Virus genome (UHGV): UHGV-0177491
Length of the DNA: 40,781 nucleotides
Strand: one strand, 5' to 3'
Source: a virus
Below, piece by piece: positions 1 to 78 of this stretch (position 1 is its first letter; every line of letters begins with the position of its first letter). The translations under genes and the position numbers were made by a program. Below the pieces are notes generated by a model, which searched no databases, was not told the origin of the DNA, and saw only the letters and a list, made by a program, of their open reading frames with translations.

Positions 1-78
1 TCCTGCACCACCCTGGTGAATCTCCTGCACCACCCTGGTGAATCTCCTGCACCACCCTGGTGAATCTCCTGCACCACG
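1..78. repeat. Iteron array: three perfect 22-bp direct repeats TCCTGCACCACCCTGGTGAATC plus a partial fourth
   Basis: Direct repeats at 1-22, 23-44, 45-66 and partial 67-78. Same unit occurs twice at 40738-40781 and in degenerate form inside the initiator gene at 39204-39290. Confidence 0.85.

Follow-up and report, generated by a model that had tools for sequence, protein, structure and literature searches.

The two ends of the window, which is the whole analysed stretch of 40,781 nt (viral genome UHGV-0177491), are parts of one tandem array that was cut by the assembler, and the genome is a circle of approximately 40,759 bp. Together with an adjoining 174 nt, the array forms a second, non-coding copy (ori2) of the predicted replication origin of the phage. 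This copy lies between two divergent early promoters, the putative pR on the cro side and the predicted pL on the N side, in the slot that holds cI in temperate relatives. The best explanation as a whole, with a probability of roughly 75%, is that the split array of this circular, ex-temperate phage is a second origin copy in the cI slot and would act as an auxiliary initiation site bound by the O protein. The array is of a known kind, the iterons of a lambdoid origin, and the origin inside gene O (ori1) is ordinary; what is new is the extra copy outside of O. As an assembly observation the shared ends are ordinary and are now explained.

The array is built of a perfect 22-nt unit, TCCTGCACCACCCTGGTGAATC, which occurs at 1-22, 23-44, 45-66, 40738-40759 and 40760-40781. 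The third left-end unit is succeeded directly by 11 nt of a partial unit (67-77). TRF reports 3.5 copies with 100% identity on 1-77. Six matches were found, while 0 were expected from 100 dinucleotide-preserving shuffles. These results agree with the first-pass annotation, which had described the same perfect repeat at both ends (three units and a partial one on the left; two on the right). The repeat it described is indeed perfect, but the phase of its 22-nt unit is arbitrary, since the functional repeat is a 17-nt dyad-symmetric core, GGTGAATCTCCTGCACC, and a 5-nt spacer. Counted in cores, the right-hand array starts at 40730, and its first core is a variant that forms a perfect 7+3+7 palindrome (GGTGCAG CTC CTGCACC), and the remaining cores retain the outer TGGTG...CACCA arms. 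The two parts of the array are as follows.

1-77, no strand: left-end part of the ori2 array; three 22-nt units and 11 nt, with cores GGTGAATCTCCTGCACC at 15-31, 37-53 and 59-75
40730-40781, no strand: right-end part of the ori2 array; core GGTGCAGCTCCTGCACC (40730-40746), then the two units at 40738-40781

The suffix of the window equals its prefix over 44 nt, for which the chance expectation is none, and an overlap of 22 nt is equally valid. Base 40781 thus joins base 1, or base 23 after removal of the 22-nt overlap, and the window by itself permits a closed array of 3.5, 4.5 or 5.5 units. A 34-mer from the unique flank to the right of the array retrieved one metagenome contig, ERZ1034973 NODE_1092 (L006), and further contigs from other samples and assemblers were found by exact-protein look-ups with Cro, the O' fragment described below and two other proteins. 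L006, a SPAdes contig, crosses the junction with 99.5% identity to the circularised window over 7.8 kb, and its order is cro - pR - segment X - 174 nt - array - segment Y - pL - N. The junction is also crossed by L007/L044 (MEGAHIT k119, ERZ19634781), by L008/L040 and L039 (all SPAdes) and by L046 (MEGAHIT). None of the junction-crossing contigs has anything extra between the two ends of the window. In the MEGAHIT contig k119_151426 (40,877 nt), the first 119 nt equal the last 119 nt, which is k, and the shared stretch maps to unique tailspike sequence (window position 9372). The contig is therefore a true circle with the array internal. The window circle minus 22 nt (40,759 bp) aligns with this contig (L007) for 6,217 nt that include the junction; the alignment has a single 1-nt gap and 0 mismatches. 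The circle sizes agree as well (40,877 - 119 = 40,758 versus 40,759 bp). Another contig, L009 (NODE_154), is 100% identical to the window over the 3,685 nt compared and 32 nt longer, and the two are probably the same assembly.

Since k=119 is longer than the periodic run of 99 nt, the reads directly support a count of 4.5 units. The array in the genotype of the window therefore has five 17-bp dyad-symmetric sites at a 22-bp spacing, and in the closed array these cores are direct repeats with internal dyad symmetry, as required of a lambdoid origin (approximately 18-22 bp). The first-pass proposal of a circular or circularly permuted genome is borne out by the independent contigs that cross the junction and by the closed circle at k=119. 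Its further suggestion that the genome had been opened arbitrarily inside the array does not hold, since assemblers break at the perfect array. The uncertainty in copy number that it foresaw is real for the window alone but is settled here at 4.5 by the k=119 assembly. Sf6/Sf101/CUS-3-type Lederbergviruses package their DNA by the headful, which gives circularly permuted genomes. The circle of approximately 40,759 bp is the assembly form of such a headful-packaged, circularly permuted P22/Sf6-like phage.

The five sites of the array share their core with four predicted iterons inside the phage's own O-like initiator gene. Outside of the ori1 and ori2 arrays the core (at most 3 mismatches) has no further occurrence in the window, with a chance expectation of 0.09. 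The features of the replication module are as follows.

39197-39282, minus strand: ori1, four iteron cores inside gene O; spacers ACCCCCTA, AGGGTG and TACCCCTA
40577-40750, no strand: ori2 flank, exact 174-nt copy; contains an AT-richer tract and the quasi-palindrome TGTTCGGACATGTTCGAACA (40663-40682)
38776-39546, minus strand: O-like replication initiator, 256 aa; N-terminal winged-helix HTH_36 domain; phrog_270 and phrog_8540
39581-39835, minus strand: O', an 84-aa fragment with only the N-terminal DNA-binding winged-helix domain
35762-38668, minus strand: primase-helicase, 968 aa, partner of O

The ori1 array is degenerate with spacers of unequal size and is identical in every related contig read. 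It was overlooked in the first-pass annotation, as was the 100% identity of 40577-40750, directly before the right-end array, to 39044-39217. The latter segment flanks the ori1 array on the side towards which O is read. Since both the array core and the 174-nt flank match the in-gene origin, the window ends represent a second copy of the whole predicted origin. The term iteron used in the first pass is apt for these repeats, which are the origin repeats of the phage's O-type initiator. The 80 nt adjoining the iterons are 62-65% AT, in comparison to 37% AT (63% GC) in the array; this enrichment is only moderate, a point against ori2 as a working origin.

The linker of the O protein is encoded by the ori1 iterons. 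O has approximately 94% nucleotide identity to a gene annotated as 'replication protein O' in Stx2a phages, and ori1 is most closely related to the O genes of the Min27/24B type of these phages. The iteron is allele-specific, with GGTGAATCTCCTGCACC in the window and GGGGCAGCTCCTGCCCC in Stx2a phages. O' is approximately 80% identical in nucleotides to the beginning of O, is preceded by a Shine-Dalgarno sequence of its own, and is encoded as the exact same protein in 11 of 11 related contigs. O' could be a DNA-binding-only competitor at the iterons. The primase-helicase contains Hint and LAGLIDADG homing-endonuclease domains at approximately residues 379-631, which suggests that the insert is an intein. 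The homologue in APC_JM3.2 has 626 aa and, judged by its size, apparently does not contain the insert; the genes of Stx2a_F403 and phiKp_30 are as long as that of the window.

In lambdoid phages the origin lies midway in gene O and is made up of iterons and an AT-rich tract (PMC7466680). Both arrays resemble this type in having direct repeats of approximately 20 bp with internal dyad symmetry and an adjoining AT-richer tract with a palindrome, and a cognate O-type initiator and its helicase partner are encoded in the same genome. ori1 fits exactly, as it lies inside gene O, with the initiator in cis and the helicase gene adjacent under pR. ori2 differs in its location, which is not within an intact O gene but upstream of pR, in the gap that separates the divergent early promoters, and in being an additional origin copy in the same genome. 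The copy is non-coding, because L007 has a 1-nt deletion in the 174 nt of ori2 that breaks the O reading frame and because the ORF calls across ori2 are inconsistent between genomes. In L007 a 139-aa ORF that starts inside pL is called across ori2, and in other genomes a different ORF is called or none. A coding role for the 139-aa ORF was rejected, as near-identical genomes disagree in both frame and ORF call.

The cro-ori2-N arrangement is absent from all complete E. coli genomes and INPHARED phage records searched. Neither the flank 34-mer nor a dimer of the unit has an exact match in IMG/VR viral contigs, and the dimer has none in GTDB species genomes. The retrieved literature on lambdoid origins, from a search that was not aimed at second copies, describes no second origin copy.

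Based on BLAST against phage records, the window belongs to an E. coli podophage of the P22/Sf6/CUS-3 type (Lederbergvirus) whose early regions are lambdoid. The structural and packaging genes are approximately 96% identical to those of Sf6/Sf101/CUS-3-type Lederbergviruses. The plus strand carries pL, a boxA-like sequence and N, followed by cIII, kil, anti-repressor-like genes, a Rad52/Erf-like gene, SSB and an anti-RecBCD remnant. The minus strand carries, in window order, the tailspike gene (7141-9837), injection and head genes, nin genes, the primase-helicase gene, O, O', cII and cro. The features around ori2 are as follows.

40377-40405, minus strand: putative pR, TTGCAT, 17-nt spacer, TACTAT; faces away from ori2; read from the sequence
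218-246, plus strand: pL, TTGACT, 17-nt spacer, TACTAT; faces away from ori2; from a promoter scan
40421-40576, no strand: segment X, joins ori2 to pR; contains the palindrome GGCGTTTAAACGCC; homology to phiKp_30
78-145, no strand: segment Y, joins the array to the conserved pL region; weak likeness to the end of the O N-terminal domain of another allele
437-709, plus strand: antitermination protein N
40129-40344, minus strand: Cro-like HTH_3 regulator, first gene of the pR operon
39863-39988, minus strand: truncated cII, 41 aa versus approximately 98; from tblastn with the cII of prophage L004

The putative pR was assigned from where it lies and from homology with the sequence preceding cro in phiKp_30 and prophage L004; it scores below the threshold of the consensus promoter scanner, which did find pL. 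The boxA-like sequence is at approximately 293-305, after pL and before gene N, and the pL-N region is approximately 95% identical to E. coli prophages. Between cro and N the window has, in order, X, the 174 nt, the array and Y, and likeness to ordinary prophages resumes at approximately base 146, which corresponds to about 50 nt past the end of their cI. In prophage L004, vB_EcoP-720R6, Stx2a_F403 and all ten places with an identical N protein, cI is found between cro and N. Wherever the family is recorded, the cI of these controls is of the LexA/Peptidase_S24 family. Homologues of segment X occur in phiKp_30, where gene O and the primase-helicase gene flank the homologous stretch, and in only two complete E. 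coli genomes. Segment X ends in a stretch that resembles a translation initiation site and has 82% similarity to its counterpart ahead of ninB (35567-35605). Segment Y has no match in E. coli genomes. For the idea that O' and Y were formerly a single gene of another O allele, a homologue search returned O' itself only, and all tblastn matches in phages were to the O' part, with none to Y.

Members of the genus Lederbergvirus are as a rule temperate and encode cI, cII and Cro (PMC11990801). The first 41 residues of the cII of the window are nearly identical to those of the 98-aa prophage protein, after which the gene runs into the O' fragment. Neither cI nor integrase has a tblastn match anywhere in the window, no Pfam integrase match was found among the early-left ORFs scanned, and the early-left strand has no ORF of at least 300 aa in 437-7100. 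The window is therefore without a cI between pL and pR, a full-length cII or an integrase, and with these losses the lineage looks like an ex-temperate, obligately lytic phage. The genes for cIII and kil and an Arc-like gene (approximately 10730-10894, minus strand) are still present despite the missing cI and integrase. Similar damage to the lysogeny module of an approximately 40-kb P22/Sf6-type genome is seen in phiKp_30 (Klebsiella, cI deletion) and in the virulent P22-like UAB_Phi20. The window lineage differs from these in that its cI is replaced by an origin copy and that int and most of cII are also gone. The lineage is present in at least 12 metagenome samples from several submissions. 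This widespread lineage has given up temperate growth and has, where the repressor gene was, a complete further copy of the predicted origin; it offers a natural test of what becomes of an immunity region once lysogeny is lost.

The ori2 array is the most variable spot among the near-identical genomes, with 4-6 sites, while ori1 is invariant. The forms are as follows.

5 sites, spacers ACCCTG x4: window, L007 and L009
5 sites, spacers ACCCCCTA, ACCCTA, ACCCTG, ACCCTG: L008/L040 and L039
4 sites, spacers ACCCCCTA, ACCCTA, ACCCTG: L046
6 sites, spacers ACCCCCTA, AGGGTG, TACCCCTA x3: L006; L027 begins alike

Over 238 nt, the six-site form in L006 is the same as ori1. In the core, GTGAATCTCCTGCAC(C/T), the last base is the sole variable position, and it differs in one unit type. 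The array would turn over quickly by slippage or unequal exchange between units, with the protein-binding core nearly constant. Steady cores and drifting spacers are suggestive of selection on a binding core; recent duplication by itself could also explain the conservation. Since the genomes carrying ori2 are all at least 99% identical, it is of hardly any statistical weight that the 174 nt and the cores are conserved. The spacer of the second ori1 unit (39239-39251, CACC AGGGT GGTG) is the exact inverted complement of an ori2 spacer (11-23, CACC ACCCT GGTG), which is consistent with a template-switch inversion of the loop of a quasi-palindrome.

From the shared core, the O protein is predicted to bind the five sites of ori2 as it would those of ori1, and ori2 would most likely function as an auxiliary or second initiation site. 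In the twin-domain model, DNA behind outward-firing promoters is negatively supercoiled. ori2 is behind both early promoters of a repressor-less phage and so would sit in negatively supercoiled DNA. This supercoiling may aid the melting of ori2, as in the transcriptional activation of the lambda ori. The lambda ori needs nearby transcription, and the effect is thought to be topological (PMC3985674). A tentative proposal, which we consider unlikely in this full form, is that ori2 is a selected, working second origin at a position that is unwound by transcription-driven supercoiling without itself being transcribed. If this is true, lytic replication may be quicker or more robust, with the number of sites tuned by rapid gain and loss of units, and O', which is encoded between the two origins, could modulate which origin fires. 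The capture of an origin into the vacated immunity slot would then be a step from a temperate lambdoid to a professional lytic phage. The lineage is also a natural test of iteron number, origin position and nearby transcription in the control of lambdoid replication.

It is possible, at somewhat less than even odds, that ori2 is a neutral scar, in which illegitimate or mosaic recombination removed cI and left a fragment of a replication module, and that nothing removes the array. The cassette does resemble a deleted replication module, with a putative remnant of the O N-terminal domain (Y), iterons, the 174 nt and X, and in phiKp_30 X lies just before the helicase gene. The truncated cII and the O' fragment are other recombination debris nearby, and the spacers and unit number drift freely. 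Furthermore, the lytic relative phiKp_30 has a plain deletion of cI with no origin insertion. However, all four array types retain the 17-bp core at every site, apart from the C/T at the last base, the array never has fewer than four sites, and the complete origin flank was kept and not a random piece. These points are weak due to the close kinship of the genomes.

A less probable explanation is that ori2 is a control element, which would titrate O, handcuff ori1 in a manner similar to P1 incA, or, when bound by O, insulate or modulate pL and pR. Two arrays with a shared core, 1.5 kb apart, bracket cro and the start of the initiator gene, and O', with its DNA-binding domain only, is encoded between them. 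Auxiliary iteron clusters of plasmids (P1 incA, F incB/incC) are generally known to be of a similar layout, as a second initiator-binding cluster is near the origin with the start of the initiator gene in between. Those clusters are without an unwinding element and serve the copy-number control of a stably maintained plasmid, whereas the window duplicates the full origin flank and the replicon is a lytic phage. ori2 has kept the AT-richer flank with its palindrome, for which a pure titration site would have no need, and, to our knowledge, lytic phage replication is not limited in copy number by titration or handcuffing. Extra copies of the lambda origin in trans inhibit lambda and block replication by decoying the initiation step (PMC4488673). 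Therefore, a second array could be costly or regulatory and not a working origin.

Two further explanations relate to the assembly itself, and both are effectively excluded. Several related records also break at iterons. Like the window, the sibling SPAdes contig L009/L028 (NODE_154, 40,813 nt) and a PASO19 scaffold (L027) terminate within the array, and another PASO19 scaffold has a 100-N gap in it (L041). The GenBank records of phiKp_30 and APC_JM3.2 begin or end within their O-gene iterons, and thus iteron arrays are a recurrent assembly break point. Approximately six cases (the window, the sibling contig, two scaffolds and two GenBank 'complete genomes') indicate that these arrays break short-read assemblies of lambdoid phages. 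The 'complete genome' record of phiKp_30 (LC768498.2; L002 3395-3525, L003 1-90) starts and ends inside an expanded in-gene O iteron array, with at least six perfect 21-nt iterons versus three in Stx2a_F403. An end overlap derived from a repeat can be mistaken for a terminal repeat, and the genome size is then off by one unit. Terminal k-mer overlaps used for 'DTR' completeness calls are similar, as a circle written as a line has a prefix that repeats its suffix. The overlap of the window differs in that it is inside a tandem repeat, so its length (22 or 44 nt) does not reveal the true closure, and blind trimming makes the genome one unit of 22 nt shorter or longer than it really is.

The 174-nt repeat has a comparable effect. 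Two MEGAHIT contigs, L010 and L029, are 1,652 nt each, which is the 1,533-nt ori1-ori2 interval and k=119; therefore, the 174-nt repeat itself breaks assemblies. In the sample that gave the only closed MEGAHIT circle, the ori2 copy of the 174-nt repeat is interrupted by a 1-nt deletion. A mis-assembly, in which the terminal array belongs to a sole origin in gene O and the 'second copy' results from strain mixing or repeat collapse, is highly improbable. A perfect 174-nt repeat with a perfect tandem array is typical trouble for de Bruijn assemblers, and the several 1,652-nt contigs show the graph breaking at the repeat. However, five contigs from five samples and two assemblers keep the gene order given above for L006 with ori1 also present, one contig closes as a circle at a k longer than the array, and the unique flanks X and Y are found only in the ori2 context. 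Physical direct terminal repeats of a linear, T7-like virion genome would also make the suffix equal to the prefix but have almost no likelihood here, since the overlap is inside a tandem array where 22 and 44 nt are equally good and no unique sequence occurs once per end, since other assemblies hold the array internally and open the circle elsewhere, and since the packaging genes are of the P22/Sf6 type, a group generally known for headful packaging.

Two other readings of the array were rejected. A CRISPR-like array was ruled out because the units abut without spacers. The Rfam CsrB model matched the array with 23.7 bits (gathering score 71, E = 6e-4), which was taken as a match of repeat on repeat and not as an sRNA; the weak match is on the minus strand of the array (L007 2525-2604) and is probably an artefact of this kind. 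As RNA, the iteron would form a 5-bp stem (UGGUG/CACCA) with the loop CAGGAGAUU, so that the hairpin would expose a GGA motif in its loop. The same motifs are present at ori1 in the mRNA of O.

The window also has two features away from the origins. A free-standing HNH endonuclease gene (HNH_3 and AP2-like domains; 9851-10354, plus strand) is directly beside the tailspike gene, and for L040, L043 and L046 the gene call here is just an ORF of 52 aa. Long inverted repeats that are 72-91% complementary join 2278-3208 with 30742-33150 in the nin region. The early-left arm of these repeats, which was covered by the domain scan, encodes anti-repressor-type genes (ORF6N, pRha/ANT).
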